Assembly: GCA_050273025.1 (NCBI GenBank)
Contig: CP158635.1
Coordinates: 4,898,001-4,962,000, forward strand
Reading direction: 5' to 3'
DNA length: 64,000 nucleotides
Source of the DNA: Cenococcum geophilum
Taxonomy: Eukaryota
Position numbers and translations under genes: made by a program. The notes under the pieces are model-generated. The model saw nothing but the letters and a program-made list of their open reading frames with translations, searched no databases and was not told the origin of the DNA. Positions 12,972-63,968 of this stretch are shown here, piece by piece. Each line of letters starts with the position of its first letter. Position 1 is the first letter of the stretch.

Positions 12972-12973
12972 CC

Positions 12974-15193: not shown

Positions 15194-15330
15194 GGGGTAA
15201 CATTAATGCGTTAGACGCCCCCCCTGCTAGTAAAGGTCAAGAATAAGCGAGTTCAAAGTGACATAGTGGGACTAGGTTATTTTGTGTACTGTACTAGTTA
15301 GGGGGGCGTCTAACCCTTTTATGTTACCCC
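15194..15330. mobile_element. MITE-like element, 137 bp, ~39-bp imperfect TIRs
   Basis: Left GGGGTAACATTAATGCGTTAGACGCCCCCCCTGCTAGTA vs reverse complement of right GGGGTAACATAAAAGGGTTAGACGCCCCCCTAACTAGTA; no clean TSD. Confidence 0.7.
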
Positions 15331-15382
15331 ATTGTAGTTAGAGGTTCGGCTAAAGACTTGGCGCTATATATATAGACGTGTA

Positions 15383-26450: not shown

Positions 26451-29400
26451 TGTTCGTACTAATTTAATAGCACAAGTAAGCCATATCCCAGGGCACGAAA
26501 TACGTATAGTATCGTATGCTCTTTAGGATAGTAGTAACTATCAATTCTATTAAGGTAGACTACGTAGTCTATATACTAACGCACCTCCCCCCTAATTAGT
26601 TAGTACTTTATAAGTGCACCAGATATATAAGCGGGTAGTTAGTACACCAAATGCGTAAACGCGTGCTCAGCGTACCAAACGCGTAAGCACGCGGTTAGTA
26701 CAACAGGTGCTATAATTATATACTAGCGGTACTTAGAAAATAAAACCACTTATATACCACCTCTGTAATTGCCTTAATAGAACTATAAAACACGTAAGAA
26801 AATATATAGGAAATCCCTCCCAAGGTGCCTTCCGGGCTGCCTTCTAGACAGTGCTCCAAGCTAGCTATAAGTCCTACTTACGGCCCGTAAATAAACCGTA
26901 CAGCCTTCCAACAGGCCGTAAATAAACCATAAGTGCTCCGTTAGTCTCGCTCTACCCATTCTATAACCTTTAGGTTAAGCTTATTTATATTAATTAGGGT
27001 TTTAAGGGCTTAATACAGCTTTGCCTTAGTTATAGCGTCTACTAGGTTATCTCCGCTGCTGATCTATTTAACCTCTATAATCTTATGTTGTTTATAGGCC
27101 TAACGTAGGCACATTAGGTCGACTATAAGCCTCTTCTTTTATATTATACCTAGTTTAACTAGGCAGTTATAGAGGGACTTTAAATCAGTATATAAAACCA
27201 GGGGTAGCTACTCCAATTATAGGATCTTCTAGATCGTTAATTTAATTGCGGCTGCTATATTAAAGCTATAGGCTAGTATATATAGTTTAGAAGCTAGTAC
27301 ACTACGGGTTACTTATTTACACTTAATTAAAGACCAGTATAGAATATTTGCGTCCTAATTATAGTCCGTAAGTACAATTATAAAGCCGATTTGCGATAAT
27401 AGGTCTCTATTATTAGCAAAGGAGGCGTCTATAAATACCATTACGCTAATAGAATTTAGGTCTAGCGGTATAAAAGTAAGTCCTCTTATCGCATTATTAA
27501 TCTGCCATTAAATACGCTTATTAAGCTGCTTAATATTTTCTTCTTACAGATCTACTGCCTAGGCCGTAAAGGACAAGTTATAGGCAAATTTGGGTTAGCA
27601 GACTATAGCAATATAGGCGCCTCTTACACACTATACAGCGTATTAGTCCTTTATATTTACAGTCTTATAGGTCTCTTTACGGGAACTAGTAAGGTCTGTA
27701 GGCTTTGCTATAATAAGCTTTAGGTTTTAAGCTTAGCGTTCCTAGGTTAGCTAGATTAAGTTACCCCTTTATATAATTAGGCCTCCATTAAACTTAATTA
27801 GGGTCTACTTAGTTAACTACTCTTACAGCTTTACCAGGAACTTAGCTTCTTACAGTTTAGTCTCTTTAGCGTCTGTAAATATCCGGTCCGCTAAAAAGAG
27901 GGTATTATCTATTTAAAGTCCAATAATACTAAAGCCGTTTAATAGGGTGTAAAGGAGGCAGGGGTTATAAGTTAACTATTCCATCTTAAGTTTATGGACG
28001 TAATACTAGTAATACATCTTAAACCAGTAGTTTTTAGCTTCTGGCACTCCGTAAAGTAGTTTTATAACCTATAAAATTATTCCTAGTTATAAATTAAGCT
28101 TAAGCAATAGTCGTATAAAGATATCCCTACTTAGGTAGATATTAGACTATATATAGGCTTATAAAATATCCCATAAGTAAAGGGTTATAGGTTTTATTTA
28201 CTATAGTCCAGGTATAAGCGCAAGTATAATCCGTTAACTAACCCGTTAAATTATAAACAATTATATAAGAACTAAGTCTTTCCTTTAGTCGTTATAAGCT
28301 TATATAACAAGCCTTAACTTTTTAAAGGCTTTATTAGTACTAGGGTGCTTAATTTTATTAATAAAGCGCAAGTTAAATATACAGACGCCTTGTAGAACGT
28401 CTCTCTCCGTTATAACCGTAAAGACGCCCTTTTCAAGTAGTCCGTTAATCTCTTTACGTCATAAGTCCGTAAAAGGGGTTTCCTATACTAGAACTAATAT
28501 ATCCATAAGCAGAGGTTATCTTACGGATATATCTATAGAGGTTAGGTAATTCTCTATTACGGGGTTCTTAGTTATGGGGTACTTTTAGGGGCGTCCTTAA
28601 CCACGCTTTACGGTAGGTTTAGCGGGTTTAATAAGTTTACGGGGGACTTCTAAAGTTGGTAAGGGTACTTCCGGTTTATCTAGTTTAGTAGGTACTTCTA
28701 ATTCATCTAGTCCAGCGTTATGGGTATTTTCAGGCCAAAAGTAGGGTTTTACAGACGTGCTCCTAAAGCTAGTTAGTCCGCTAGAGAGTTATATACAGCA
28801 CGTTTCGTTTTCTACAGCTAGTAAACAGTAAGGTCCCATCTAATTACCGCTTTCACGCCATATAAGGACTTTAGAATTAAGCAAGAGGTTATAAACTAAG
28901 GTTATATCTAGTCCGTTACGGTAATATAGGGCGCTATTAACTGCTTATTTGGCCCGTAATTTAACTATTTCAGCTATTACCTTCCATATTATAGCTGCTC
29001 GTTCCATAATAGACGGGGTAGGAGGGCCTAGGTTGCTTATTCTTAGGTAGGCTCCGTAGACCAAAAGGGTAGGTACTAGTCCGTCTAGGCCAGCGGTATT
29101 ATTAATAGCTTTTACGGCAATCTATAAAGCCAGTTCCTTTTAAATGTCCTTACATTTATCTATAATAATCTAGTAGGCTCTCTATAAGGCTAGGTAAGCT
29201 CACTTAATAAGCCTAATAGACTAATACACCTTAACTGGAACAGCTTTTATTAATATAGCCATGGCCATAGTATACTGCTAGAATTCCTTACTAATAAAGT
29301 TCCTATTAGTATCGTGGGTAATATACTACGGAGGTCTAATATATATGTCGATCCAGCAGGTCCGTAAAATATCCTACGTATACTTTATAGATATATTTTA

Positions 29401-32400
29401 TAACTAGCGGGCGGCTTAATAACGGGTTACCTTATTAATTATATATAGTACTAGGCTGCCGTTAATATATATAATATCTACGTACACTAAGTAGTTAAAG
29501 TCAAGATCCTTATAAAGGGTAAACTTAAATCGGCCTAAGGAATATCCGTATTTCTAGTAGTAAAAGCAGTATTTAGTTAGGTGGTTAATTGCCTTCCTAT
29601 TAACGTCGTCATATCCAGAGCATTTAAGGACTCTATATAGCTTTTCAGCTAATAGGTAGCCAAAACGGCGGTACAGGCGGTAGATTTCTATACTGGTAAG
29701 GTAGTATAGGTTATAGTCAAAAGATTCCTAAATATACGTCCGTAGAGTCTCTCCCCATATAAGGAACGGGTGTCTAAATTATTGTGTAATTAGTAAGGTA
29801 ATATGCTTACTTCCTAGGGTAGTTACGGGGCCTATTAGGGTGTCCGTAATATTATTATTGTACACCTATAACCTATCTATGTCTATAAGACAGAGTAGGA
29901 AGGAGGTATCCGCTTTTACTATGTAGAAGTTAACTAGGCTAATAGAAGTCTTAACTTTAACTAATCTAATTAATGCGGTTAAGCCAATGCCGAATTAGAC
30001 GTTTACGGCCCCAGTTTACGTAATATTAATGTCCGTATTATTATTTATAGTGGTCCTATATACAAGGTATTATCTGTAGCCTACGGTAGACTTTTTAGAG
30101 GCACCTATATTAATTATAACGCCGTAGAATTCCTTAGGGGTATAGCGTTCTATAGTAATATATATAAATAGGTCCTACTTATAATTTATAACGTCTATAA
30201 TAGGGGTTCTTGCGGAATAGTTTTTAGGCGCAACTAAGTATATAAAGGAACGGTCGGCTAATACGGTCGTAATATTAAAGGCTTAGCCATCCGTAAAAGG
30301 TCTAAAAGTGGTTAAAAACGTCTCTAAGGTCTCCTATTCCTAGGCGTCTAAGTTAAAGTTAATTATAAGGGCTTCTATTAACTCATTAAAAGGCTCTTCC
30401 GCTTCCTCTCCTTTATATTCTAAAATAAATTAGTTAATACGGCTATTAAGTCTCTTCCTAGACTTATTACGTTCTTCCTAGGTATGCCTTATAGACTAAC
30501 ATTCTTCCTTACCACATATAAAGCACTTCTAGCTAGTTTGTCTACGGGGGTATATTTTCGTATAGAAGTTATTATAGGGGTTGCGGGTAGGACCTAGTCG
30601 ATGCGGGTACTGCTAGCAGTAGCGGCGGTCCGTAAAGTAGACGTCTAAGTCTATTTACGGATATTAAATATCCGCAATAAAGGCTTAAGTGCTACCTAGT
30701 AGATTTAAAACTTTATACGTTATAATAGAGGAGCGTAAATCATTAATAAGGCCAGTTAAGGTATCTACAGGCTTATAATAGGCGTACTTATAGGGTTCTA
30801 CTTCCTAGCAGGCCGTAATAAGTTTATTATATAGGAAGTCGTCTATTTAAAGCTTAGTATTAAGGCCGTACTATAGGTGCCAAAGGTCTTTAATAAGAAT
30901 TTAAAGGCACTCTATAGTCGATTTTTCAGTATTCTTATTAATTACGGTCCGTAGCTTAGTCGCATTCTATTAGGTAAGAATATCACGCTTATATTCCGGT
31001 CCTTTAAAGTAGTTATATATAGCTTCGCATAGCTTATTAAAGGGAACACCAAGGGGGTTACTCTTAAGGTTAGTATAGTAGTGGTCAAATACTAGGCCGC
31101 GCAGTATAGTAGAGTAGGCTTAGCTAAATTCCTATTTAGGAATATCAGCCTTCTAGCAGAGGTCCATAAAAATAGTTAGTTTAAAGTTAAAGTTGTTGTT
31201 TTTACCGCTATACTTAAATTTATCGGTATAGAGCTTAGCCAGGTTAGCTAGCTCCTTACTATAGGTCTTTACTTAGGTAGTTTACGGATCTATAACTTAA
31301 GCAATAGGAGGGTTTTAGTCCATATTTTAGTTTACGGGGGTATTATAGTCCATAATTTGGGTTACGGTAGTATTATAGTCCGTAACTTAAGTATTAGGTA
31401 TACTTTAGCCAGTAAGATTAATTCTAATACCACTTAGGTTTATAGAACAAATTTGGTTAAATAGGTCAGCTATAAGGCTAAAGATTCTATTAAGTTTAAA
31501 GGAGGTAAAGGGGTCGCTAGTTTTAATATAATCTAAGATCTACTCTTTAGTCCATTCCGTTTGGTCCTCCTTATATAGTATATTATATAGAGACCGTACA
31601 ACAGTAACTTATTTGTCCCTTTTAACCCATACGCCTTAGTAACGTAAAAGGGTTTATAGGTTACGGGTAGTAGTAGGGTTATAAGCCTTAAAAATAGCTT
31701 CCATAAAGTCCGCAAAGTCTTCCTTATATTACTCCCACAGGTCGTTATTTATAAGCTTAAAATATCCGTATTTAAGGATTTTATATTTAATATAGTTATT
31801 AACGTCAGTTATAGACGTAAGGTCAACTCCTTAGCTCTATTTCTCTTAACCTTTATTAATTTGCTTACTTATGTCTGCTATACTATATAATATAGTACAT
31901 AGCGGGTAAAAAAGGTCTTATAGTAGTCCGTAAAGGCGGTTAATAGGTCCGTAACAGTTTGTAGGAGGGTAGGTAGTTTCCGTAAGGTCTTATAACGGTC
32001 TATAAAGGTAATTAGCAGGTCCGTAGTGGTTTATAAGAGGGTAAAAGGTTCCGTAAAGGTCTATATTCGCGTCTATAAACTTCTAATAAACTATATTAAG
32101 ACTTAAATAAGTATATAGAGTTAGTAATAGGTCTGTAATCCCCAACTTCTAACCTTCTAGCAGGTCGTACTAGGAGTCTAAACGGGTGGTCACTATTAAG
32201 TATCGCTCGGGGGAAGGTGTTAAGTAATTGCTAATCTATACGCGCTTACTAATTAGTGTTCATACTAATTTAATAGCACGAGTAAGCCATATCCCAGGGC
32301 ACGAAATACGTATAGTATCGTATGCTCTTTAGGATGGTGGTGACTATCGATTCTATTAAGGTAGACTACGTAGTCTATATACTAACGCACCTCCCCCCTA

Positions 32401-32500
32401 ATTAGTTAGTGCTTTATAAGTGCACCAGACGCGTAAGCGGGTGGTTAGTACACCAAACGCGTAAGCACGCGGTTAGTACGATAGGTGCTGTAATTATACA
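26451..32500 (-). mobile_element. Ty1/Copia (GalEa-like) family C2 copy a, 6050 bp, RIP-inactivated
   Basis: LTRs 26451-26722 and 32257-32500; TSD CTATA at 26446-26450 and 32501-32505; inverted homolog of 49840-56202. Confidence 0.95.
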
Positions 32501-34523
32501 CTATATAAAATAACCTTAACTACTACGCCGCCCTAAGCTAAGTAGAAGCTTAAGCTTAGTATATAAAAGTACTAGAAGAACTAGTACTCTACTATAAAAA
32601 GGACACTTAAAGAACCTAAAGCTAAATAAGAAACTATAGATAATCTAGGTAAGCTTAGCACCCTAAATATCCATATAATTAGAGCTACTCCGCTAGCTTA
32701 ACTTGCTAAAAAAAACCTAAATATATAATTTTTGCTATTACAATAGCTAATATTAAAAAGGCCTTAGTACTAAAGAAGCATGCTAACCCTACTATAAAGG
32801 TACTAGTAGAGTATTATAAACGCCTAGATGTATTCTTATAAAAGTAAGCTAATAAGCTACTAAGATATAGCGTAAAGTACGTGAAGGAGCTCTTGCTGCA
32901 CCTGGCCTAAAAAGACTAAAACCAACCAAAAGAACCCTGAAAAACACCTAGAGAATCCCCCTGAGATATATATATCGCAGGGGAGGCATACGTCGAATGA
33001 CGGTAGTTCGTACTCGCGTGCGTCCACTAGAACCACGCCTAGCAATAGCCCTCTATAATAAGAACGGGCGAATACTATACTATAAAGCGGAAAGACCTCT
33101 ATTAAGAAGGCGTCTAATAAAATATAAAGCCTATTAGACGCGTCTAGTATCCGTAGTTATAGGGGAGCAACCGTTAGCTATAACGAACTAATACAGCTAG
33201 TAGAATGGCTCCGCCAGTCTAGCGAACCTTAGGCGCCCCTCTAGTAAACCCTTAATTAAATCCTCTAATGGCTAAGTAAAATTAAAAATAAATAAAACCC
33301 TTCTTTACTGGCGAACCGTATCTAGGCCGCTGTAGCTGCGCGTCTATAGCATAGGGAACCTACCCCCCTAAAGATAATATCTGGGCATATAATTATAATA
33401 TAACTAAGTATAGAAAAGTAGAGGGGCTTAGGGGATAATTAGAAATAGAAGTCCTTATAAAGATTTGCAAAGAGGTTTATAATGCTATTATAGTCTAACA
33501 CCTTAGGAGCGGAGATATTAGAGTTACCCTAAGGGACTAATAGGTAAAGAAATAAGCCGTTAGGGTAGGGGATAGGCTAGGAGAACGTATTAGCATAAAA
33601 GTGCTCCGCGAAGATTACCTAGTCGAAGTCTTAGCGGTTCCCCTAAGCCTTAGAGTAGAAAAGGGACGCTAGGTAGACAATATAGTAACTATATATAAGA
33701 TAGTAAAACAAACAGAACGCCTTATACTAGGACTTAAGATTACCTAAATCTAATGGCTTTAATAGGAAAATATAAACTAAGTATATAATAAGAATAATAA
33801 AAGAATATAAGGGTTACTAGAGACTCGCTAGGGAAACGCTAGTTAAACGTATAGCTCCCTTATTGTTAGTATACATACACTAAGAATGCAAAAACTCCTT
33901 ATTTAAAAAGGTATTATTATAAATAGCCTTATATACAATGTAAGGCTCTATAACTATAGACTCTGCCTAAAATAATATTATCGCTATATATAATGGGGGC
34001 ATACCTAATCTATATGCGTAGTATAGGTATACTGCGGCCATTATGTAGGCCCCTATAATATAAGATACTGCTTAAATTAAGACTAAATAAAATATATAAA
34101 CTGCCACCAAAGCATATATAAGGCGTAGGAGAGAGAAGACTGTATTAAATATAGGAGATAGAAGGTAAGGGCTTAATAGCTGCGGGAATAACTATATGTT
34201 AGGTTATACGAATGGAAACAATAGGCGATAAGCTAGGGGGGCGTAGGTGCCTTTTTAGCGTTTCCTACCTTTAATACTGGGGGGCTAGGCCAGCTATCCC
34301 AAGCCTTAACGGGCCAGAAGTAATGCCGCGCGATATCGCCAGACTATATAGGGATATAAGGGTTATAGGGGATATAAGGGAGAGGATGCCCTATAGCATC
34401 AGCAAAATGTTTGTGCCTCCTGACAGTACTAACAGCTCCTGACAGCTCCTGTCAGGGCTGTCAGGAGCTCTAGGAGACACTCACACTCGGCATCCTGTCA
34501 GGAACCTGTCAGGAGGTCGCCCG

Positions 34524-34616
34524 GACCACCAGGACCACCAGGACCTCCAGGACCTCCAGGACCTCCAGGACCTCCAGGACCATCAGGACCATCAGGACCA
34601 TCAGGACCATCAGGAC
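34524..34616 (+). repeat. 9-bp tandem repeat CAGGACC(AC/TC/AT), ~10 copies
   Basis: Directly visible. Confidence 0.9.
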
Positions 34617-35570
34617 AACAATAAAAATTCTAGATTTAAAAATAAGGCATATCAACACTCCAGTATTTACAGCTAGTCAAAAAATACAAAATTAATTTAA
34701 TTATATATAATCTAAATAATCCAAATCAATCTCTCCTGTCTACCGCCTGTGTCTGTCATGGAGCTCTACGATCGCTCGGGCGTCGGGCGATCGACTGAGG
34801 AGCCTCTCGCGGAGGCTCCAAATCGTCGATCGGCGGTGTTCCCGATGATCCGCCGGCCGTGTGCTGATTTCCTAACTAGGCCTAGTGCCTGCCTGCTTGC
34901 CTGTCTGCCTGTCCTACCTGTCTGCCTGCCTGTCTGCCTGTCCTACCTGTCTGTGCCTGCCTGTGCCTGTCGTGCCTACCTGTCTATGCCTACCTGTCTG
35001 TATCTGTAATTCGGGGGAGAGGTCGGCCCGATCGAAGGCTCTGCTTGATTCGATTGCGATTAATTGTATTAATTCGAATCGTTCTCCATGGGCGTTCGTT
35101 GGCTGTACGTTTGAACGGTGGTCGTCTGGGGTGCCTCCCTAGGAGGCCTTGATTCGATTTGATTCGGTAATAGGCTGATATCGAGGCTCTGGTTCGATTC
35201 GATCGATCGATCGAATCGATCGTGGTGTTCGCTGGCTGGTCGTTCGAACGGTTATCGTCTGGTTCTGACGACGGTCCTCTCCTACTTGCCTGCCTACATG
35301 CCTGCCTGCCTACCTACTTACCTACCTACCTACCTACCTGCCTGCCTGTGTCAGTATCTGATTTAATTTGGGGGAGAGGTCGGCCCGATCGAAGGCTCTA
35401 ATTGATCCAGGTCGTTCTCTATGGCCGTTCGCTAGCTGTACATTCGAACGGTAGTCGTCTAGGGTGCCTCCCTAGGAGGCCTTGATACGATTCGGTAATG
35501 GGCCAATATCAAATTCGATTAATCGATCAATTGAATCGTTCGTGGTCTTCGCTAGCTGGTTGTTCGAAAG

Positions 35571-35677
35571 GTTGTCGTCTAGTTCTTGTAACGGTCGTCT
35601 GGTTCTGGCGACGGTCGTCTGGTTCTGGCGACGGTCATCTGGTTCTGGCGACGGTCGTCTGGTTTTGGCGACGGTCC
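35571..35677 (+). repeat. 20-bp tandem repeat ACGGTCGTCTGGTTCTGGCG, ~5 copies
   Basis: Directly visible; explains the repetitive spurious ORFs 35482-35707. Confidence 0.9.
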
Positions 35678-35994
35678 TCTGCTGGCTGCCGTTCTAGTGC
35701 CTCCTAAGGGAGGATGTAAGGAAGGATAAAGAATGGGGTGACTACAAAGGGGGTAACTTGGCAGAGGCACGTGTAGGCTATCGGGAATATAGCGGGGACC
35801 CGATAGCACTGTGTGTCGCGCGCACGCGCACATAGGGTCGTGTCGCATTAGGGGGGAGGTATCCCATTGGGGGGGTATCACAGTGGGGAGGCAGTCGCAT
35901 TGGGGGGGTGTCTTGAGGGGTGTGCATAGGAGGTGTCGCTTTGGGGGGGGGTTGGGAGGGGTGTCGCTTAGGGGTATCCTGTCAGGAACCTGAC

Positions 35995-36225
35995 AGGACG
36001 ATCAGGAAAATCAAGATCCTGCCAGGAGCCTGTCAGGAACGATCAGGAAATACTAGTTTCCTGTCAGGACCCTGACAGGACCGTAAGAGGACGATCAGGA
36101 AATCAAAGATCCTGCCAGGAGCCTGTCAGGAACGATCAGGAAATACTAGTTTCCTGTCAGGACCCTGACAGGACCGTAAGAGGACGATCAGGAAATCAAA
36201 GATCCTGCCAGGAGCCTGTCAGGAC
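35995..36225 (+). repeat. 93-bp tandem repeat (~2.5 copies) in the right subterminal region of the TIR element
   Basis: AGGACGATCAGGAAA... recurs at 35995, 36088 and 36181 almost identically. Confidence 0.9.
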
Positions 36226-37720
36226 GACCAGGACGATTAGGAAAATCAAAATCCTGCCAGGAGCCTGCCAGGAGCCTACCAGGACGATCAGGACCTCCAG
36301 GATCTTGGCACCCCAACAAAATGCTGATGAGGGAGACCCTTATGGACAGCTACAGCAAGCTTAAGACCGGGATAGTTAAGAATTAGACTTAACGCGGCAA
36401 ATATAACATTTATAGCCAACTCTTAAAGGGTATATAGCTAACTAGTAAAAATAGGGGAAGAACTAAAGATAATAATAGATTTAGATATAGAAGCGCTAGT
36501 AGAAACACAAGATATAGGAATAGAAAGCTCTATATAAAATAAGTAGTAACTAGGGTATAGATATAAGAGACAGAAGTTTTAAATATCCTAGAGAAAGTAG
36601 AAATAGAAGAAGCGAGGAATAACGGAGAGGCAAAGGACCCTTACTAGGGGTCCGCCACCTATCTATTATATAGTATAACTATAGTAATACAAACCACTGT
36701 CTTATAAGGCCCTTACTAAACAGTTTAGACCTAGAGAAATACTATATCCTTGCTATATAAGAGCCATACTATAATACCTATATATAATTAATATACTGCC
36801 CCTAAGGATTCTAGCTCCTATATAAACCAAAAGCAGCTATATACGTATGCTTTATAATTAGTAAGACTATTAGCCTGTCCTTATAGTTATAGTAGGCAGT
36901 TAATCTAGATATTGTAGTTATAATAATCTAGACATATAGAGGACCGGTATAAATTATTAATGTATATAACCCTAGGGTTAAAGGGGTCTCATAAATAGAG
37001 AATATTATATTAGTAATAAGCTTACTTAAAACTAAAGGCATAGAGTCTATCCTATTAGGAGATATAAACCTCTACTACCTGTAGTGGGGGGGTATCTACG
37101 TCGCTGCTAAATAATAGGTAGAATGTTTACTAAAAGCTATAGACACCTAGGGCCTTAAGCTAGCTACCCCCCCCTAAAGTAATTATATGGCAATAAGGAC
37201 CCGCTAGAAGTATAATTGACCTTATATTTATAGACGAAGGCCTATACTAGAGACTTAAAAGGTACAACCTTAAAGAAGAATAGGCACTTACCTTAGACTA
37301 TATCCCCATCTAGATATAGCTAGATTTAGATATTAAGGTGTAACTAAATAGTAAAAGATATGTAATAAGGATGCTTAAGGCAGACAGTTTCCTTAATATA
37401 GTTAAATAATAACTCTAAGACCTAGAAGAAATCCACCCAATACTAAATAAGCGAGGCTTATTAGCTACCCCTAAGGAAATCGACCGAAGACTAAAAAGGA
37501 TTTAGGTAGCGATTAAAAATAGGCTAGAAGAGTACTGCCCGGTCTTAAGACCGGGCCCCTATACGTAATATATATAGTTTGTATAATGCGCGGTTCTTAT
37601 AGCTAGCTAACGATAAGTAAGAAGGAAATACTTAAGTAGCTATAACCCTAAAGATAAGAGACGATATAAAGACATAAGAAACTAGTTAAAGAATACCCTA
37701 AAAAAAGAAGTAAGGAATAA

Positions 37721-40700
37721 TGTCACGGCTAGCTTCCCGTGGGAGCGATCCGATAGATTAAGTAATAATAAGGGGCTATATTATGAATAGACTAAGGTAA
37801 GGGCTTAAAGAAAGGGGCGCGGTAGACGATTATGTACGTGTTCGGTTGTCGGGGCAACGCTAGGGCAATATTAATCCGTGACTGATGACGCCTTAATGGT
37901 AGCTATATAGACGAACTGTTACATTACCCCCCTTTAAGCTAGGAGGATTGCCCTCGATCCTTATAGTTAGGCTCTCCTTATCTATCTTACCCTTCCGTCC
38001 TTCTCTGCTTTATTGTCTTCCTCTAAGGGCTCTAGATCTACGTCCTTATAATACGCCTCTAGCTATTGCAATAGCCATATAGGTGGTCTAGCGTTATAAG
38101 GTCTCTTGTTATGGAACGCCTTAATCTTATAGGGGGCGCCGATAAAGCCGTCTACGTTATACTAGGTGTTATCCGGGTTGTGGCCTACCTAGTTAACCTT
38201 ATACTATAGCCTTCCGTAGTAGGTTCTACTAGTAAAGATCTTATTAATCTTGTACTCTGGCTCGCCGTTAATTAGGATTGGCTTTTTTGGCTTCCTGTTC
38301 TGGCCCGGTAGGGGGTTATCTGGGTCCTTTTGTAGTTGATCGGTATGGAAGACGTTTGACATCTTTATGTTTGGGGGTAGGTTAATAATATACGAGTGTC
38401 CTTTTATGCCTAGAATCTTATAGGGCCCTGTAAGCTATCTGTCTAGCTTAATACTCGGTTGGTCGGTAGCCTAGCCCTTCCTAGTAACGTATACTTAATT
38501 ACCTACTCCAAAGTCTAGTTCGCGACGGTGCCTATTAGCTTGCCTTATCTGCCGCTCTTAAGCTTTCACTAGGTTGTCTTTTGCCTATTTAACTGCGTCC
38601 TAAGTTTTATATGCGAAAGCCTAAGCTTCTTATTATGTTAGCTTCTTACGAGGTGTTAAGGTTGCTTATATACGTTCCTCCTAGTTAAAGTAAAGCCTCG
38701 GCTTAAATTCTAGCTCTAGCTTATATGGTGTAAAGCTAGTAGATTTATACGGTAGGATTACCTGTACAAAGTCTATATAGGGGAGGAGCTCTAACTAATT
38801 ATCCTGGTAGTGGTTGATAAAGGGTCTTAAGCGTTGGTTAATGTACTAGTTTAGTACCTCTGTATTACTATTAGTTTGTAGGTAACTGGATGTAGAGAGC
38901 TTTTACTTGACACCGGTTAGCCTATATAGCTTATCTGTAAAGGCTAAGATAAATTAAGGTCTTTAATTTAATGTGACCGTCTTTAGGAGGCCGTACACGC
39001 GCTAGACGTGCTAGTAGTATAGGTTTGCTGCGTTAGCCGCGGTAGTAGTTTTATAGTAGGGTAGTAAGAAGGCTCTCTTACCTAGTCGATTAATAACTAT
39101 AAAGACGCTATTAAAGCCCTTTTTGTCTATTAGGAAGAACTTAAAATTAAAAGAGATATACTGCTAGCAGCGTTTACTAATTAGTAGGGGGTGCAGTAGG
39201 CCTAGGGTTTTGTTATAGGGTATATAGGTCCTCCTATAGGTCCTGCAGTTTCTTATATAGGTATCGTAGTCTAAGGGTAGTCCTGGCCAATAGTATTAGT
39301 CTACTATAAGTTTCCTAGTCTTTGTTTTGCCTAGGTAAGTGGTTACCTAGTAGGAGTGTACCTCCGCAATAAGGTAGGTACGGAGGTAGTTAGTATTAGA
39401 GACTATTAGCTTGCCAAAGCGGGTTAATAGTCCTCTTTGGAGCTTTTAGCCCTTCCTATCTTGCTTAGCTAGCTGGCGTAGCTCTACTAGCGACTAACTA
39501 GTTTAGTTGGCCTAGAGGATCTGATTAACTAGCTCATACGGTTCCTATTCGCGATTTGTTATAACTAGGAGGGGGTCTTTAGAGGTTGCCTCTAGTGTAG
39601 CGATTATAAGGGCGGGGTTAATTAAGTACATAGTGCGTATAGCTACGTCCTTCTCCTTTTATGTCTTTAGGTCCTCCTGCTTTTATAATAGGGTATTAGC
39701 TACTATATTTGCTGTGCCTGGCCTATATGTGATCCGTATATGGAAATCAGCTAGTAGGTTTGCCTAGCGGGCTTGCTATAGACTTAGGAGTCTCTTAGTT
39801 GTAAAGTACTTAAGGGCTTAATAGTCTATGACCGCTATAAAGGGAGTACGCTGAAGGCTAATGAGGTGACCTTGCTATTCCTATAGGCCTCTTATTACTG
39901 CTAGTATCTTTTTATTATGGACCTTGTACCGCATCTCTGCGGGGGATATTGTTTTTAAAAAGAAGGCTACTGGCTTCTAGGTCCTGTTATCTTATAGCTG
40001 GTTTAGCACCCTAGCTACTACTCTGTTGCTTATGTCCGTCTCTATACAGGTGTCTTGGAATAGTAAGTAGTGCTTGATTACGCTACTAGATAGTATAAGG
40101 GCCTTAACCCGTTTAAAGGCTTTAAGCTCTTCCTCCCCTAGTAGGTGCTATACTTCCTTCTTTATAAGCTTACTAAGCGGTCGTATAACTCGGCTGTAGT
40201 CCTTTAAGAAGGCCCGGTAGAAGTTATAAAACCCTAAAAAGGATTGCACCCCTTTTACGGAGGTAGGGGGTTCCCAATCCTTAATCGTAGATAGCTTATT
40301 AGTGTCTATAGCGATCCCGTTAGTACTAATAATAAAACCTAGGAACTTTATCTCCGTAATGTTAAACTTACTCTTCTTAATATCCGCTTATAAGCCTGCC
40401 TTCTAAAGCCTTTATAGGACCTTTTTAATATGGACTTTGTGCTCTAGCGGGTCGTCTAAGTAGATTAGGATGTCGTCTATATAGGCTGTGCAGAAATCGT
40501 CTAGGTAGTTAAAAAGGACATTATTAATAAATCTCTAGAAGGACGTAGGGCCGTTATATAGTCTAAAGGGTACGATATAGTACTTGTATGATCCGTACCT
40601 TATACAAAAGGTAGTTAACTCCTCTACCTCTTCCTTTAGCCGTATACGGTAGAAGGCCTACCAAATATCTAGCTTGGTGAAGATCTTAGCCCTTAATAGC

Positions 40701-43700: not shown

Positions 43701-43918
43701 GTAACCTTAGTCTAATGTTACGGCTAGCTTCCTGTGGGAGCGATCCGATAGATTAAGCAATAATAAGGGGCTATATTATGAATAGACTAAGGTAAGGGCT
43801 TAAAGAAAGGGGCGCGGTAGACGACTATGTACGTATTCGGTCGTCGGGGCAACGCTAGGGCAACATTAATCCGTGACCGACGACGCCTCGATGGTAGCTA
43901 TGTAGACAAACCGTCACA
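37721..43918 (-). mobile_element. Ty3/Gypsy chromovirus G3, full length 6198 bp, nested in LINE ORF2, RIP-inactivated
   Basis: 203-bp LTRs 37721-37923 and 43716-43918; TSD AATAA at 37716-37720 and 43919-43923; minus-strand PPT next to 37923; gag zinc knuckle (~42160-42195), RT, RNase H, integrase and chromodomain remnant (GEPEY.I.KI...GRL.YKVN.VGH ~38150-38270). Confidence 0.95.
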
Positions 43919-46900
43919 AATAACTGGAGACGATTTATAAACGAGCATACTTCTAACCTAAGCCTCTCCTATAATAAGGGCTTGTGGGCTATAGCGAAAT
44001 AGGTAAAGAAAAAGGTAGGGCGACTAGCAGAAGATCTATACCTACTACCCCTATAAAGAGTAGGGGAATTATAGGCTACTAATAATAACAATAAGAAGGT
44101 AAAGATCTTTATAGAAAGGTTCTTCCCCTAACCAGCTGCAGTAGACCTTAGTAATATTATAGGTAAAGCACTAGTAACTTGCCTGCGGGTTAACAGTAAT
44201 ATAATAACAGAGGAAATGGCTAAAACTATTAGCCGCCTTTTAAATAATATAGTACTAGGTTTAGATGGGATCCTAAATAAGGCCTTAAAGACCTATAGAC
44301 CACTTATAGCACCCTGGCTTGCAGATATAGCTAGAGTATACTTTACTATAGGCTACTACCTACAACTTAGAAGATCTATAACGATAGTTGTCCTATAAAA
44401 AGAAGGTAAAGTAGATTACTTAATTCTAGGAAGCTACTGCCTTATTGCCTTAGAAAACACCCTTAGCAAAATCTTAGAAAAGGTAATAGCGGACTATATA
44501 GCGGATATAGCTAAGGAACACGCCCTACTACTATAGAGCTAAATAGGGGCAAGAAAGAACCGCTTAATACTATTAGCACTTACGCTACTTGCTACTACTA
44601 TTAAATCTACATAGGCGATATAAAGGGACTTTATAGTATTAATGCTTAGCCTAAATATTAGTGGAGCCTAGATATTAGTGGCGCCTATAATAACGTACCT
44701 CACGAGCGTCTTCTATATATCCTTAGGGCAAAAGGCTTCCTAGAGTGAATTGTATAATTTATTTAAGGGTTTATAGGTTAGAAAGAAATATTACTAGTTT
44801 TTAGCGGATACTAGAGCCCCCCTATTATAGTTGCAACAGGAATACTATAAGGATTACCCCTCTCGCCTATACTCTTCCTTTTCTTTATAAGCAACTTGCT
44901 TAACTCCTTTAAAGAAGGGGCGACCTAGGGGATAGGCTTTATTAATAATATAAACCTAATTATATACGGGCTATTAGCCGTAAAAAATTGCAGAATGCTA
45001 GAGAAAGCTTATAATACCTATATAGAATGGGTAAGATAATATAGAGTCTAATTCTTACTAGAGAAATACTAGCTAATCCATTTTATAAGAAAACGCAACT
45101 AATCTGTAGATCTTTAGTATATAATCTATATTTAAGGCTTTAGGGGTTAACTAGTTTAGGGCCTATGGGTATTAGGAGTATGGGTAGATAGTAAGCTCTG
45201 GTGGAGCGTATATGCGGCGTAAGTGGCCTATAAGGGCTAAGTATAGTATATTATATTATCCAGGATCGTTAATTCTATATAGGGCCTATGCTTTTAGAGG
45301 TTACACCTACTATATATAGCAGTTATCCGGCTAACCATAACATATAGGTCTAGTATTTAGGCCATTAGAGAATCTGAGAAAGGCCCCCCTAAGTCACTCT
45401 TTAAACTACTCTAAAAGGTCTAAATAGCCTACCTTTAGAGTATAATAGGCGGATATAAGCGAACGGCCATAGCACTGCTTAAGAAGGAAGCCAATATTCC
45501 CCCCCTATAACTATATATTAAAGCCGCTGCAATATAAAGGGCCTAAAATAAATGCAACTCTAACGTTATAAAGTATATTAAGACATGCCTAAATAAACTA
45601 TAGAGGGACCCTAGGGCGCCCTATAGGAGAATAAACCAATAACCCTAAAGTAGGGAAGATATATTAGAGAAACAAGTAAAGAAAGCAGAAGAAGAATAGT
45701 GCTGCTTTAGGGCCCAGGCCTATATAGAGGAGAAAGGGAGACGTATAAGAGGCTAGTAAAGATAATAGTAAGAGAGAGAAAGGAGTTAAAGTAGAGTATA
45801 AAAGAACGCTAGGAAACTATCTACCGTAATAAAACACTGGTTAGACTAACGCTAGAGAGGTATATAGGAGTTAAAGGTATAAAGGCTAACTAAGGCAAGA
45901 GGAACCTAAGCTGTAGTATAGTTAATACTATAGGGGGTAAACACTCTAGGGCTCCGAGAAGGCCTAATAAAGGCAGAAAATATAATAGCGACACTTTTAA
46001 GAACAGGAATAATAGGACTAAAAGACTGGCTCTACTAGGTAGGTGTCCTAGTAGGTAGCCTAAGATATAAATATAGCTGGCTAAGACAGACACCAAAACA
46101 CGTAATACTGTTATGCCCCCTACACACTAACTAAGAAGTAATGCTTTTAGTAGCTAGCATAGAGAACTATAATATACTACTCTTAATATAAAAAGGCCTT
46201 AAGGCGGTTACCTAGTGGCTTATTAGCTAAAATATACTAAACTAGTTCCGGGTTATAAGGGAAATGGTAATAAAGGGTAGGGGGGTAAGCAATGGGCGCC
46301 CCCTGATAACTCTATAGTAGTAGAGTAAAGTTTACAATACTAGCGCGTCCGTAGGCTTATTACGGCAGTAGTAGTTCCTAAGGAGGTTAAAAAGTAAGGT
46401 AGTAGGAGCACTATAGGTGACTCGCAGGCGCCTTATAAGCGAGTCCTAAAAGGTAGGGAGATGGATTATAGGGTTTTCTTAAGTAGAGTTTTCTCCCTAT
46501 ATATATATAAGGAGTAGTCCGCGTGGGCCTAATAGGGATCCGAATCGGACGTTAAGTAATGAATTATTATTATTAATAAACTACTAAAATACTAACTATA
46601 TAACTATAAGATTATACTTAAAGAAGAAATACAGCCTGGATTTAGACCCTTATAAAAAACATCTTAAAATAAACCCTAAGTAATATAGAGGTATCTAAAT
46701 AAGAACCTAAGTAAAGGATTTATTAGAGCAAGCTCTTCGCCTACAGCTATATTTATAATCTTTATTAAAAAACCTAGCGGTAGTCTATACTTTTATATAG
46801 ACTACTAAGCTCTTAACGCCATTACTATTAAGAAATAGTATTCGATCCCGTTAATATAAAAGACACTAAACTAACTAAGTATAGCCCGCTACTATATAAA

Positions 46901-57971: not shown

Positions 57972-58100
57972 TGTTAGGTAACAAAGTCACCTCGCCTATA
58001 TATATTGTTCCGCATAGCCATGCCTAGCATTAAGCCAGTCACTCGCTTACCTTTTAGGGTTTGTGCCGTGGCTAAGTGGTACGGAGCTTATTATTTTATA
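57972..58100 (-). repeat. Solo LTR, 129 bp, same family as 47243-47371 (inverted)
   Basis: Reverse complement of 47243-47371; TSD ATAAG at 57967-57971 and 58101-58105. Confidence 0.9.
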
Positions 58101-58376
58101 ATAAGAGGTAAGGCTTCTTATAGGCTTTATCTTTTAATATCTATAGCGTTAAAAAAACTCACTAGATAGTTTAAGTAAAGTAGCCGCATTTAGCGGTAAT
58201 ATAGACGTAGGACTTCTCTTTACTAAATTAATTAGTAATAACTTTCTTAAGAATTTACCGTTTAAACTTATAGGTAATTTTAACCTTTAATCTAGTGTAA
58301 GGAGTATTAATAATATAGCTTTTAAGAATAAGAGAATAAGAGGAAAAGTCCTAGCTATAACTACGGGCCTTTTTAA

Positions 58377-59387
58377 TAATAATAATAGATTTAATTTACC
58401 GTCCGACCCGGTCCCCCTAATGGGTCCACGCAGACTAATTCCTATGGTAAAAACTTAATATATATACTAAGAAAAACCCATTTTTTGGGTAAACAAAAAA
58501 CCCCTAAGGGAAACGTAAGAGGTAATACTTCTAGATAGCATTTGTACTACATTAATGGGGGGAAAAATACCGTTAGGTTACTACTTAGAGACCCCTAAGG
58601 AAGGTGTCTTAAATGCCTGTCTTGCCCTGTCTGCCTTTTAAACCACTTTCCCTATTTATTATTGCCTATATGGAATTATATACCTGCCCTTCCCCTACTC
58701 CGCCCTATATATATACACATATACTACTTACAGCTTCCCTACTTATAGCATAATCTAATCTTATTATTATACCTTCTAGTATAATCTATTGCCCTCCTAT
58801 ATAATGTACTTATATCTAGTCCTATATAACCTTTTTTTTAAACTAAAATAACGGGACAGTAATTGGTGCTAGGTATTTTCTCCTAGGGCCTTAACCTAGG
58901 TCCTTTGTAATATAAAGGAGGATATATACCGCATGCGGTAGGTTTAAGCTATTAGGTAATAATAAAGGCGGGTAAATAAGAGGCCTTAAAAGGTAATAGA
59001 CGAGAGGCTTTTAAAAGGTAGGTAGATAAAGAGGCTTATTGCGGGCTTTAGCCTGCAAGGCGTACGTATATACTGTATAGGGTTATGCAGTATAGCGTGC
59101 CATACTGTATAGAAGGAGGACGCCGATTTAGATGCCGTGATTTAAGCAGGTTAACCGTATATAAAGACGAGTTGGTCGTGTTCCTAAAGCCTTGTTGGGG
59201 CTTACCCTCCCAACAGAAACTTCTTTCTTCGCGATCACCCGTCGCAGTGCTAGCGGTGCGCAGCCATATGGACGTCTCTGCGTTTGCTCTAGTAGTCTAT
59301 TGACACGATCCTAACGGAATATTAATAGTACTGCCAGGTTCCTAGGCTCCACCGCGTGGAGGTATAGAGGCCGATTTTATAAAGCCC
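58377..59387 (-). mobile_element. SINE-like non-autonomous retroposon, ~1011 bp, with 5' HDV-like ribozyme and Tad1-LINE-like 3' end
   Basis: TSD TACGGGCCTTTTTAA at 58362-58376 and 59388-59402 (single copy at the equivalent site ~62048-62061 of the related Tc1); (ATT)4 tail; 3' ~70 nt similar to LINE end 46510-46573; no recognisable RT/EN coding remnants. Confidence 0.85.
59274..59387 (-). ncRNA. HDV-like (nested double-pseudoknot) self-cleaving ribozyme, RIP-mutated copy
   Basis: Minus strand: P1 GGGCTTT / J ATAAAATCG / P2 GCCTCTAT / P3 ACC / L3 TCCACGC / P3' GGT / P1' GGAGCCT / AG GAAC / P4 CTGGCAGT-A-CTATTAATAT-TCC GTTA GGA-TC-GTGTCAATAG-ACTACTAG / AG CAAAC / P2' GCAGAGAC. All pairing defects are C>T or G>A changes, most in RIP CpA/TpG context. 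Confidence 0.82.
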
Positions 59388-59690
59388 TACGGGCCTTTTT
59401 AAAGAGATACTATAGTATTTGGCGCTTAATTTCGGTAATACGTTTAATATATTAAAGGGTTACTCCTATAGCCTTTATAGCGAGGGCAAGCTAATAAAAG
59501 CCTATAGTTAGTAAAGCAATATTTAAGCTAGAAGAGTCCTTACTAGTAATTTTAGAAAGCATTAAGGGTATAATAGAAGTAATAAGGCTGCAAAAGTTAT
59601 TCTACCGTTAGAATTTTTGGGCGGTTAGTAGGTAGTGCACTAAACTTCCTAATTAGGAAGGTGCAAGAGCTTTTATTAGGGATATCCGTA

Positions 59691-62366
59691 TAGAGGTCGC
59701 TAATATAGCAGAATATACCTTCCTAATTAAGAAGTTTGGCTTACCGCCCACTAAAATATTATAAATTCTATTACTAGTGGCCTAATATATATAGATAAAG
59801 CTTTAAATAAAAGGCAATATATAGGCGATTAATTGATTGGTTAGTAAGCTAGCTATTTAAAAGGTAATAATAACTATAGGGGCGCAGCTTCCTGCTCTGT
59901 AATGACTTGGCGGCGTCCTCTACTGCTTAGGCAGAAGCCTTTATAGGCTTAATCTACTGCCTTAATCCCGCCTTTTTGGCAATCTTTTATATAGAAGTTT
60001 GGTGTAATAAAGGTTCTAAAGGAGGCTCTACTAAAGGCTCTGCTAAAGGCTCTATAGGAAGCTCTATAGCGATTTGCCCACTAGTAGAGCCTTTAGTAGA
60101 ACTTTTTCCTTAATCTTTCCTTATCTACTTCCTTATAGGTTAATTAATTGTAAGCTACCTAATATCTACTACTTTATAATGTTGATCTTCCTGCCTATTT
60201 TAAGCCTGCTGTTCCGGCTACTGCTGCTTCTGCTACTACCCCTACTGCTGCCCCTACTGCTGCCCCTACTGCTGCCCCTGCTGCTGCCCCTACTGCTGCC
60301 CAACTTAAGGCTCTATAAAGCTGACTTTAAACGCCGGCTTCTTCGAGTTTCTGCCCTTTGTATTTGGTCGGTTTTAGATTAACTAAGGCTAGGGAGGAGG
60401 AGGAGGATTTGTAGGTAGTAGAGGCTTTGGAGGAGCCTTATAGGAGGAAGCTTTTAATTTAGTAGGCGGCTGAAGTAGTGCCTATTTAGCTTAACGTCGT
60501 CGGCGGACCTTTAGATCTTATTTGTTGTGTAGAGGCTCTAAGTTAACTAGTTCGTTCGGTAGATAAGGGCCTATTTATATATAGTGTGGGAGCTTTAGTA
60601 GCTAAGGCTTTCTAAGCAGAGGCTCGTCCGGATTAATACGGTTAAGGCTTAAAAGTACCTGCTATCGCATATAATTAATTACTTGGTAGCGATATTGATC
60701 TATCTATTTAAGCGCCTTCTAATCTCTTGCATTATTAGTAGCGCCTTTATAATATTTGTTGCCTCCTCTATAGCGAATAACCTCTTAAATATAATGTGGA
60801 ATTCGTTCTATCTAAGCTTAAATCCGCTATCATTTAAGCTTATCTTATACCGTCTACTAAGCTTACTTAGCTTCTGCTTAGTTCTTTAATGTGCCCTTTT
60901 TTATAGTAACTCGTTTAAGGTAGAACTAGCATAGCTCTATTATATTTAGATTAGGTAAATTGCCCGGCCAAAGTAGACGCTAAAGGCCTACTACGTTAAA
61001 GTAGATCTACTAGTGTTTTAATAAATAAGCGGGAGCTTTATCCTCTTAGATAATAGTATTTAGGCGATTAATCTAGCACTTAATTATTATAGCGACTCTG
61101 TTAATCAAGGTATAAGCGCCGTAATGAACGTATACAAGCCTATATAATTGGAATATCTATAGACCCGGATATTAAGATAAGGAGTAAAAGGTGGAAAAGG
61201 ACACGTTTATATATATATGCCAAGGCTTAAGCGAGCCCCCTAACTAGATCCGTTACGGTGCCGTAATATTAATTATAAATGGAATAGGGATTAGCAGAAG
61301 AATTTTGGTAAGATAGCAATACTAATTAATACTACCTTTTTTTAAGTTACGCTTAAAAGCGCTATTCTCCTTAGTAAGACGGAAGCTTAGTTTCCTTCCT
61401 AGTTTATTACGAAGGCCTAGTTGTCTTATACCGGTAGTAAGCTCCTATATATTATAAAGCTCTAGCTCTATTACCTTATTAATCTTCTTAAGCTCTAGCT
61501 TTAACGCTTTTTTCTTAGCTATAGTTTTGGGCCTCTATATATAGTAGGGAGCCTTCTAATTATATAAAAAGGCGCCCTAGAATATAAACTCTGTAGCGCC
61601 TTTAAATTGAGGTTAAATAGATAATTTATTAACCTTTTCTTTAGCTAATCGCTAGAGCTTATATCCGCCTCTTCTCTAGCCTAGAATAACGCCCGTTTTA
61701 TTACTCTAGATAGCATTCTTCTAATCCTTAATTATCTAATTCTAGTATTATAAGGCAAATTAAAGGCAAGCCTCTTTTATTACTAGTAAGAGGTAGGGCT
61801 TTTTTATAGGCTTTATCTTCCGATATCTATAACGTCAAAGGACTCGCCAAACTGTTTAGGCAAAGCAGCCGCACTCTGCAGCAATATAGGCGCAGGACTT
61901 CTCTCTGCTATATTAATTGGAGGTAACTTTTTTAAGGATTCGTTGTTTAAATAGGCGGGTAATTTTAACTTTTAGCCTAGTGCGTAGAGCGTTAATAATA
62001 TAGCCGTTGAGGATTAGAGGATTGGTAGTAGGATACCAGCCACAATTAAAGGCCTTTTTAAATAGATATTGCAGTGATCGATGCTTAATTTAGGTGATAT
62101 TTTGAATTTTCTTAAGGGTTGCTCCTATGGCCTTTATGGCTAGGGCCTGGGCCCTAGTCGCAAGCTAATAAAAGCCCATAGTTAGCACAGTAAAATTCAA
62201 GCTTTGGTGGTTCTTGCAAGCAGTTTTAGAGGAAATTGCAGCTATTTGGTGGTGTTAGTGTCGGTGTGATTGAAGTATTCTGCCGTCAGAATATTTAGGC
62301 GGTCAGTGGGCGGTCAGCCAAACTGCCTAATCGGGAAGGTGCAAGAATATATGTTAGCGACCTCCG
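59691..62366 (-). mobile_element. Tc1/mariner DD34E DNA transposon, copy b, full length 2676 bp, RIP-inactivated
   Basis: ~63-bp imperfect TIRs ((C)(G)GAGGTCGCTAA...TTAGCGACCTCCG) flanked by TA at 59689-59690 and 62367-62368; minus-strand RIPped motifs (W)S(D)(E)TG ~61700, F(W)GAF ~61575, EDKAPA ~61040 and WPGN(S)P(D)LN(M)IE ~60935-60970, with 34 residues counted between D and E. Confidence 0.9.
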
Positions 62367-62681: not shown

Positions 62682-63968
62682 CTATTCCGCTATGCTCGTA
62701 TCACCTTTCTTGACTTGATGCATACCGATCTTTACCATAGGACTTTTCATCAGCTTCCCCCAATCATGAATAGACTTCGTTTGCGCCAGCGAAATCTGCA
62801 TTTCCCTAGTCCCTCGTTCGAACACTTCTTCATCGTACGCTTTGATAGCTTCAGACAGACTCTTAGCACCGCTCGCCGCCTCCTTGATAGCCGCTGTAAA
62901 GGTTGATGAGTCCTGAATCGCAGAGTTAAATCCTTGTCCTCTGTCTAGCAAGCATGTTAACGATAGCTCTAATCGCTAGATGCACGCTTGGATAAAAGGA
63001 GAATACTCACGCGGCGTCATTGGATGTGCAGCGTCTCCACACAGCGTCATCTTGCCATTCCTGTTATCCCATGGTGCTGCTCGCTCCCAATAAGTGCCCG
63101 AATCAATAGGAATTTTAGTTCCCTCCTTGACCCATAATCCAGCAGATTTCCACGGTTCTGCCCATTGCTCTGCAATTCGTTTGACGAATGCCAGCCTACC
63201 CGCTTCGTTATTTTCAGTCTCCGGGATTGGATTATCCATCCAGCTCATGAAAATCTGGAAAGTCCATGTTTCGGGCTTATCAGGGTCCGGGACATCTTGG
63301 ACTGAGAGTACTCAGCAGTCGGCAACCAAGCTGAAATGGCGAATCCTAGATGGTTAGGAAAGAAAGGACAGCCTACTAGAGAGCCAGAACATCACCCCCA
63401 AGTCCGGATGAATACTCGTCACAAACAGCGGATTCAGGCTCCTCACATGCAGCGCCTGCTCCGCCGTATACACCTGCGTGAAATTGATTATCGACACCGG
63501 CACCGTCGTCACCTGTGCCGCCTCTTCCCCGCAAACCACCTCCCTGACCCTCGACCGCGCGCCATCACACCCCACCAGCACATCGCCCACCACCCTCGTC
63601 CCATCCGCGAACACAGCAACGACCTGCTCGCCCTCCTCCACCGCTTCCACAAACTCCTTCCCGTACTGGACGGTCAGCCCCTCGCTGAACAGCTTCCGCA
63701 GCTTCCGCCTGCTGACCCGACACGGCCGCTCCCCCGCCATCGTCATCAGCAGCTCGCCCGTCTTGCCGTTATGCACAGGCAAGCCGGTGACCGCGTCCGC
63801 GGACATGCTGGGGTCCGCGTACGTCTCCGAAATGCGCGCCGTGAGGGCCGGTGGCAGGCAGGATGCCAGGTGCGAGGAGCCCCAGTGCATCGTCATGCCC
63901 CATTCGCGCGGGCGGGTTTGGTAGGAAGTCGAGGTTTCGTACTCGAAGAGTGAGTAGGGGAGGCCGGC
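62682..63968 (-). CDS. FAD-dependent monooxygenase (group A flavoprotein, aromatic-ring hydroxylase type); 5'-partial, exons 63968-63377, 63301-63011, 62944-62682
   Basis: Introns GTAGGC...CTCAG (63376-63302) and GTGAGT...GCTAG (63010-62945) join three ORFs in frame (382 codons including stop); motifs RPREWGMTMHW, VLVGCDGARSRVR and CGDAAHPMTPHRGQGFNSAIQD; acceptor CTAG at 63969, so the GxGxxG exon is beyond the window. Confidence 0.93.

Follow-up and report, generated by a model that had tools for sequence, protein, structure and literature searches.

A high-copy family of non-coding retroposons with a predicted HDV-like ribozyme at the 5' end, represented by a mutated copy in Cenococcum geophilum

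The insert and its setting

Here we describe an insert in a 64,000-nucleotide stretch of the Cenococcum geophilum genome (contig CP158635.1, positions 4,898,001 to 4,962,000; the whole stretch is called the window below), together with the family of retroposons without long terminal repeats (non-LTR retroposons) to which it belongs. The window consists almost wholly of degenerate repeats, with five stop-to-stop frames of at least 150 amino acids (aa) in 64 kb. At 58377..59387, a preliminary description made from the letters alone had seen a 1.0-kb insert with a target-site duplication of 15-16 bp and an (ATT)n tail. Both marks were found: a direct repeat of 15 bp, TACGGGCCTTTTTAA on the forward strand, brackets the insert at 58362-58376 and 59388-59402, and the tail lies directly inside the 3' border (Table 1). 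The match extends ambiguously to a 16th base (58361/59387), and we assigned 59387 to the element as its first nucleotide, G1, because the family consensus starts GGGCT; the earlier proposal that the insert begins at G1 of a hepatitis delta virus (HDV)-like fold is borne out by the same consensus. Positions 2-995 of a reference copy from locus L050 align end to end with the window copy at 79%. Contigs crossing both junctions with 0-1 differences occur in sequencing runs of both organism labels, and the insertion is therefore shared; among the sequencing-run contigs none joined 58376 to 59403, that is, no empty-site allele was seen.

Read in its own sense, the minus strand, the insert opens with a candidate ribozyme of the HDV type. 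Rfam gave a weak full-length match to drz-agam-1 (59386..59306, minus strand; 16.8 bits compared to a gathering score of 37); its E-value was 0.35 when 171 nt were searched and 6.2 for 3 kb. Such a match of the window copy alone would not count; the predicted fold is backed by 115 related copies and by the pair counts presented below. Allowing up to three mismatches, a search for the 20-nt ribozyme core found a single site in the window and no site in 100 shuffles. Compared to the unmutated copy in L060, the window copy carries 161 substitutions, of which 106 are C>T or G>A, 64 of these 106 in a CpA/TpG context, and its GC content is 0.40 versus 0.50, with a TpA/ApT ratio of 1.59 versus 1.05. 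We take this pattern to be that of repeat-induced point mutation (RIP). Two pairs of the P2 helix are lost (G>A and C>U at 59365-59364), and the junction between the 3' strand of P1 and P1.1 reads TA where the family has CG. Judged by these changes, the window copy is a dead, RIP-mutated relic that is probably no longer able to cleave.

The body of the element appears to be non-coding. No credible Pfam domain was found in the three sense frames of the unmutated copies in L060 and L061, the sole match being YorP with an E-value of 0.025, below the cut-off, and tblastn with P0001, an intact protein from the second open reading frame (ORF2) of a long interspersed nuclear element (LINE), detected nothing inside any element. 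Stop-to-stop frames in unmutated copies reach at most 185 aa at a GC content of 50-54%, and their frame and place differ between copies. Likewise, the head of a classical short interspersed nuclear element (SINE), derived from tRNA, 5S or 7SL RNA and carrying an RNA polymerase III (pol III) promoter, was not found by ARAGORN (0 tRNA genes in six loci) or at the Rfam gathering score (window and 10 loci). The preliminary description had likewise recognised neither coding remnants nor a tRNA or 5S head. Its short tandem repeats in the middle of the element were recovered in the unmutated copy in L060 (25-nt unit, 2.9 copies); Tandem Repeats Finder called none in the window copy, where the relic of the repeat is too degenerate for the program.

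A multi-copy family with a common 5' end

A metagenome scan with the 20-nt core motif in its unmutated family form returned at least 120 loci. Among the matches listed, a covariance model found the ribozyme in 115 of 120 at 54-151 bits (76 among the first 80 loci, 39 among the remaining 40), leaving L003, L009, L058, L072 and L104 as chance motif matches. Since the model had been trained on 93 of the same copies, these scores show consistency and not independence. Most of 80 listed records come from three related record series, and members were also present in seven other series.

In addition, DNA contigs of two organism labels (runs X1 and X5) were aligned to 58000-59800 at 80% likeness, as were the soil metagenome X13 and reads of the RNA run X21. 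In X1 the summed contig depth, which is not a copy number and serves only to show that many copies have the same borders, stood at about 800-1,300 in the flanks, reached 10,000-30,000 at the two ends of the element (58366-58609 and 59220-59402) and was 1,600-5,000 in the middle, with the steps falling within the bins that hold the two insert borders. The soil metagenome displayed a depth of 98-735 across the whole element and of 0-11 in the flanks. Most aligned contigs have G or C where the window copy has A or T, amounting in X1 to 90 A>G and 83 T>C places. The greater depth at the ends is explained by subfamilies that differ in the middle and have their ends in common. Compared to the unmutated copy in L050, many loci match end to end, a second group matches only over ~183 nt at the start and ~305 nt at the end, and a third has a different last ~107 nt. 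There are two 3' end types, with tails of (ATT)n or (ACT)n versus (TAA/ATA)n and of varying length, both of which contain a block in common with the LINE 3' end.

On this sequence evidence, the insert belongs to a high-copy, non-coding non-LTR retroposon family of 0.83-1.16 kb. The absence of a second copy from the 64-kb window (by blastn, by the covariance model with filters off and by the 20-nt motif at up to three mismatches) would suit a single internally deleted LINE or a fortuitous arrangement that belongs to no family. However, at least 115 related copies, depth steps at the borders and independent duplications refute that reading, which retains a negligible probability. The preliminary description had made its proposal depend on there being more than a single copy, and the ribozyme-bearing loci together with the rise in depth inside the borders establish that the family is multi-copy.

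To define the 5' ends, we removed L036, L039 and L099 from the 115 member loci and examined the remaining 112. The start RRGCTYN was absent in nine of them, one being cut by the contig end, some mutated, and three (L078, L083 and L100) forming a special case described below. Two further loci with fewer than 20 nt upstream were left out, which gave 101 copies for the calculation of information content. In 101 of 110 loci the DNA starts at the ribozyme's first nucleotide with RRGCTYN, and the DNA upstream is unrelated. Information content in these copies was 0.05-0.4 bit at positions -9 to -2, while positions +8 to +20, which lie outside the bases fixed by the selection pattern, were far more conserved. 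At -14 to -10, where the ~14-bp duplication starts, a T-A-W-W-W target motif reached 0.6-1.2 bits and presumably reflects the nick-site preference of the mobilising endonuclease. An all-against-all comparison of 113 upstream flanks produced 12 similar pairs, in which likeness ran in register up to the junction only for L078/L083/L100, for L035/L038 and roughly for L090/L096; the other pairs were offset flank repeats.

Among 34 loci with enough sequence on both sides to be tested, 21 have an exact repeat of at least 10 nt in common between the upstream flank and the DNA that follows the tail. After L027 was discounted (a 10-mer at 1,540 nt), 20 of the 34 loci carry exact duplications of 11-19 bp, all different, around elements of 829-1,162 nt; the 13 loci without a duplication were checked for exact matches only. 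The insertion marks of target-primed reverse transcription, namely a duplication, a 3' repeat tail and independent sites, were thus found for the window copy and 20 further copies. As the preliminary description had anticipated, copies begin at G1 with their own exact duplications (at least 20) and unrelated flanks, with L078, L083 and L100 as the three exceptions.

In these three exceptional copies, the 5' strand of P1 reads CGACUCY compared to GGGCUYC in the family. The block that stands upstream of their ribozymes also stands alone and inverted in L012 (L012:3-130), and it had no Rfam or tRNA match. These loci may be copies of an uncleaved precursor, or could equally be one copy that was nested in another repeat and amplified later. 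The combination of an upstream block with an altered P1 fits the idea that cleavage removes upstream RNA.

The predicted fold was judged on an alignment of 93 rows, with pair counts compared to those obtained with slid partners and in 500 shuffles. All five helices of the nested double pseudoknot, P1, P1.1, P2, P3 and P4, can be drawn in canonical order, and 92.7% of 3,415 cells are paired, compared to 32-41% with partners slid. Eleven pairs changed on both sides (shuffle mean 5.9), and such cells numbered 80 (shuffle mean 36.4). On four of five measures, none of the 500 shuffles attained the observed value; on the fifth, the number of further pair types, 236 of 500 did. The covariation signal is located in P4, where pair 54-101 is GC in 47 rows, AU in 23 and GU in 7, pair 69-88 is AU in 62 and GC in 26, and pair 68-89 is GC in 52, GU in 26 and AU in 9. 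P2 is paired in 97.8% of cells and scarcely varies. Within the alignment, covariation thus supports the large P4 and conserved complementarity supports P2. For P1.1, 81 of the 93 rows keep pair C30-G47 and 59 keep pair C31-G46; the remaining rows have G>A changes. At the cytosine position of J4/2 (alignment column 106), 83 of 93 rows have C and 10 have T; by analogy we infer that this C is the catalytic residue, and we take C75 of HDV to be its counterpart. A compact fold implied by the Rfam match (P2 with columns 77-85, P4 as columns 47-51 with 71-75) was rejected, as it displayed no covariation over shuffles and its P2 was 74% paired.

The family is transcribed in sense. In the RNA run X21, first mates on the plus strand amounted to 12-770 across the element and those on the minus strand to 0-11, with 0 in the immediate flanks; in most stranded libraries this read direction corresponds to minus-strand RNA and so to the sense of the element. 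The ends of ten molecules lie within the tail, at 58381. Such expression could also arise from an internal promoter, with transcription starting at G1 and the 5' structure acting as a promoter or untranslated region (UTR) element, or as a dual promoter-ribozyme like Pr77 of L1Tc. In keeping with this explanation, expression is strong and strand-specific with zero reads in the immediate flanks, although these flanks are unique to this locus, and Pr77 provides a precedent in the extract of PMC3383444. Against it, the sequence has all HDV-like features at once: a 7-bp P1 from nucleotide 1, a 3-bp P3, a UCCNCGC loop, GG after P1, P2, P4 and the C of J4/2. Furthermore, P4 pairing is kept through two-sided changes, which points to selection on RNA structure, and the three copies with an altered P1 5' strand are precisely those that keep upstream sequence. 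We consider an internal promoter improbable.

Kinship with a LINE and a model for mobilisation

The window also contains a LINE, interrupted by a nested Ty3/gypsy element (37.8-43.9 kb, minus strand) with RVT_1, RNase H, integrase and SH3 domains. By tblastn, the LINE's ORF2 is 65-70% identical to the intact homologue P0001, a protein of 1,026 aa with apurinic/apyrimidinic endonuclease (APE; PF03372, PF14529) and reverse transcriptase (RVT_1) domains; the named distant relatives of the LINE are Fusarium proteins, which, together with the RIP-type mutations of the insert, indicate a fungal host. Directly upstream of the ORF2 start lies a 93-nt tandem repeat (2.6 copies, 97% matches, 35995-36293), and the surrounding stretch at 34-36 kb, which has a GC content of 0.48-0.54 and many short tandem repeats, seems to have undergone little RIP.

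The preliminary description had noted that the insert's 3' end resembles that of the window's LINE, which it labelled Tad1-like; on its domain content we refer to it as an APE and RVT_1 element. The last 69 nt of the element indeed match LINE positions 46507-46575 (plus strand) at 74.6% with an E-value of 5e-5, and a less-mutated pair, the LINE in L005 and the element in L050, gave a local alignment score of 51, while shuffles had a mean of 16.9, a standard deviation of 2.7 and a maximum of 27. As far as the alignments go, the 3' tail kinship is real but not close.

This kinship could be explained if the autonomous LINE itself starts with the ribozyme and the short elements join its 5' and 3' ends, as internally deleted LINEs of the type known as short internally deleted elements (SIDEs). 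The related 3' regions would follow, as would subfamilies that have the first ~183 and last ~305 nt in common and differ in their middles, as expected from repeated internal rearrangement; SIDEs of the R2 element arise in the same manner, according to the extract of PMC3414825. On the other hand, there is no second ribozyme in the window, although it holds the LINE from ORF2 aa 1 onward, and an Rfam E-value scan of 31500-36700 found no ribozyme. No locus with several kb of downstream sequence has an ORF2 beginning after the ribozyme, the nearest case being L068 with only aa 771-1026 at a distance of 7.2 kb, and the element body contains no ORF remnant. A 10-nt repeat of the LINE's 3' flank at 32084 was tried as a mark of the LINE's 5' end and rejected as being within chance expectation.

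Our preferred reading, to which we assign a probability of about 0.75, is that the family combines a ribozyme (113 nt from nucleotide 1), a variable non-coding body and a LINE-like 3' region with a trinucleotide tail, and that the insert is one dead, RIP-mutated copy of it. In the corresponding model, a copy of the element is transcribed, a step that is itself observed, and the ribozyme would then cut just 5' of G1, whereby upstream RNA would be lost and the ribozyme kept. A LINE protein would recognise the 3' region of the element, nick a T-A-W-W-W target and reverse-transcribe the RNA in place. The outcome is observed, in that full-length copies begin at G1 with a ~14-bp duplication. Self-cleavage, rather than the start of transcription, would set the 5' end, and a P0001-type LINE or a close relative would supply the enzyme. 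The element may be independent of a promoter and be excised from read-through transcripts.

Several results weigh against this reading. With regard to the fold, columns 26-45, which comprise P3, L3 and P1's 3' strand, were fixed by the motif used for selection, so that P1 and P3 give no covariation evidence, and the G>A and C>T changes of RIP can mimic compensatory pairs. Folding energies restricted to nested structures were no better than those of shuffles (z -0.59 and -0.18), and are uninformative because pseudoknots were not modelled. Neither in the window nor in 10 loci that contain unmutated copies did any match attain the gathering score of an HDV-like model in Rfam. The three related record series that supply most copies probably represent one organism or population. 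As for the RNA, 3,594 of 4,396 aligned X21 reads are <90% alike to the window copy, and most reads therefore come from other, less-mutated copies; no pile of read ends was flagged at 59387 in X21. L078, L083 and L100 have about 225-250 nt of upstream sequence in common. Identity between LINE and element 3' ends is modest, at 64% over 97 gapped columns (L005 LINE versus L050 element). Finally, the LINE's own 5' end was not found in the window search, and for that reason an origin of the family from internally deleted LINEs, while unlikely in our view, keeps appreciably more weight than an internal promoter.

Table 1. Features of the window copy, of the family consensus and of the LINE. Ribozyme features are predictions; window positions count from the first letter of the window.
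Feature	Position	Strand	Remarks
Retroposon copy, full-length, RIP-mutated	58377..59387	-	1,011 nt; sense is the minus strand, 59387 to 58377
Target-site duplication, 5' copy	59388..59402	.	15 bp, identical to 58362-58376
Target-site duplication, 3' copy	58362..58376	.	In element sense begins TTAAA, fitting the T-A-W-W-W motif at -14 to -10
(ATT)n microsatellite tail	58377..58386	-	Element sense reads ATTATTATTA
LINE-like 3' region of retroposon	58387..58490	-	Motif block in common with LINE 3' ends of the window and L005
Degenerate relic of 25-nt tandem repeat	58960..59035	-	Placed by eye
HDV-like ribozyme (predicted)	59276..59387	-	112 nt here, 113 in consensus; first base is the insert's first base
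P1, window copy	59387-59381 with 59350-59344	-	
P2, window copy	59369-59364 with 59281-59276	-	
P3, window copy	59363-59361 with 59353-59351	-	
L3, window copy	59360-59354	-	
P1.1 partners, window copy	59343-59342	-	
P4, window copy	59337-59289	-	
Candidate catalytic C in J4/2 (AGCAAAC)	59286	-	Position from alignment to covariance model
P1, consensus	nt 1-7 with 38-44		
P2, consensus	nt 19-24 with 108-113		CUCUGC with GCAGAG
P3, consensus	nt 25-27 with 35-37		
L3, consensus			UCCACGC
P1.1, consensus			Two C of L3 with two G directly after P1
P4, consensus	nt 51-100		Three-part stem
J4/2, consensus			AGCAAAC, between P4 and P2
Upstream block common to three copies	L078:7700-8000	+	Also upstream of the ribozyme in L083 and L100
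LINE ORF2 5' part, aa 1-415	36539..37781	+	Interrupted by nested minus-strand Ty3/gypsy element; tblastn
LINE 3' part	43904..46575	+	ORF2 aa 388-1026 at 43904-45837, 3' UTR, (ATT)n tail ending at about 46575; RVT_1, tblastn

Other features of the window lie outside these elements. About 250 nt from the retroposon, a long inverted repeat (hairpin) at 59637-59742 has an X1 depth of 20,090 and RNA reads; it had only weak matches to microRNA models and may be a separate small high-copy repeat. At the edge of the aligned stretch, the 58000-58060 bin has an X1 depth of 21,644 and some RNA, marking another repeat of high copy number. Gene-like frames in the window are confined to 63354-63968 (minus strand), with weak similarity to FAD_binding_3, and 13907-14530 (minus strand), with a sub-threshold BTB match; a homologue search with the flanking ORF at 63306-63953 found none.

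Relation to known elements

Ribozyme-terminated non-LTR elements are known in insects, trypanosomes, flatworms and other animals. A close parallel in design comes from Drosophila, in the form of R2 SIDEs and R2/R1 hybrid SIDEs (Eickbush and Eickbush 2012, PMC3414825), which, in the extract of that paper, are likewise non-autonomous and non-coding, begin with an HDV-like ribozyme and end with a LINE 3' end. The same extract describes R2 SIDEs as spreading by target-primed reverse transcription with the LINE's protein, and the R2/R1 hybrids show that the head can derive from one element and the tail from another. As described there, R2 SIDEs are rare, confined to ribosomal DNA and carried on the 28S co-transcript, whereas the fungal family is dispersed in AT-rich DNA at T-A-W-W-W, numbers at least 115 copies and has a body of 0.6-0.9 kb.

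NARTc, L1Tc and the other Pr77 elements of trypanosomatids (PMC3185411, PMC4035085 and PMC3383444, all in extract) resemble the fungal family in that they include a dispersed, abundant non-autonomous partner of a LINE, and the ~77 nt with which they begin make up an HDV-like ribozyme at the RNA's 5' end. In contrast to the fungal family, according to these extracts, the trypanosomatid 77 nt double as an internal promoter and NARTc is a truncated LINE. The fungal ribozyme is predicted to span 113 nt with a large P4, and its element has no LINE coding remnant.

The nearest Rfam family, drz-agam-1 (RF01787), has the P3/L3 core, the start of P1, an A-rich J1/2 and the double-pseudoknot topology in common with the fungal fold, but in the latter the 3' strand of P2 lies ~30 nt further downstream and P4 is a three-part stem of 50 nt. 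Classical SINEs are similarly short and non-coding, depend on a LINE, resemble a LINE at the 3' end and have target-site duplications; unlike them, the fungal elements have no pol III-type head, are longer than most at ~1 kb, and have a 5' end that appears to be set by a ribozyme fold.

A 2019 review (PMC6765202, in extract) refers to hundreds of intergenic HDV-like ribozymes whose downstream sequence is conserved while the upstream sequence varies, and to hammerhead or HDV-like ribozymes used by some metazoan LINEs and SINEs. Within the open-access literature, and with Repbase, Dfam and subscription papers outside the search, we found no paper that connects a fungal retroposon with HDV-like ribozymes. 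More tentatively, and with odds that we place somewhat below even, the elements could represent the first ribozyme-headed retroposon family in Fungi and a lineage with a 50-nt P4 that Rfam misses. In the same proposal the head would have been acquired independently of the LINE, the elements would be chimeric, promoter-less and still active, given that unmutated copies exist and that the family is transcribed, and the copies with an altered P1 would be fossils of the uncleaved precursor.

For annotation, the family would allow ~1 kb per copy of what is now "unknown repeat" to be named in RIP-rich fungal genomes and soil metagenomes, where Rfam-based scans miss it. Its more than 100 natural variants of one ribozyme lend themselves to structure-function work and offer a route to study coexistence with RIP. 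A fungal family with hundreds of copies would, moreover, extend the strategy of ribozyme-headed retroposition to a third eukaryotic lineage at the supergroup level.

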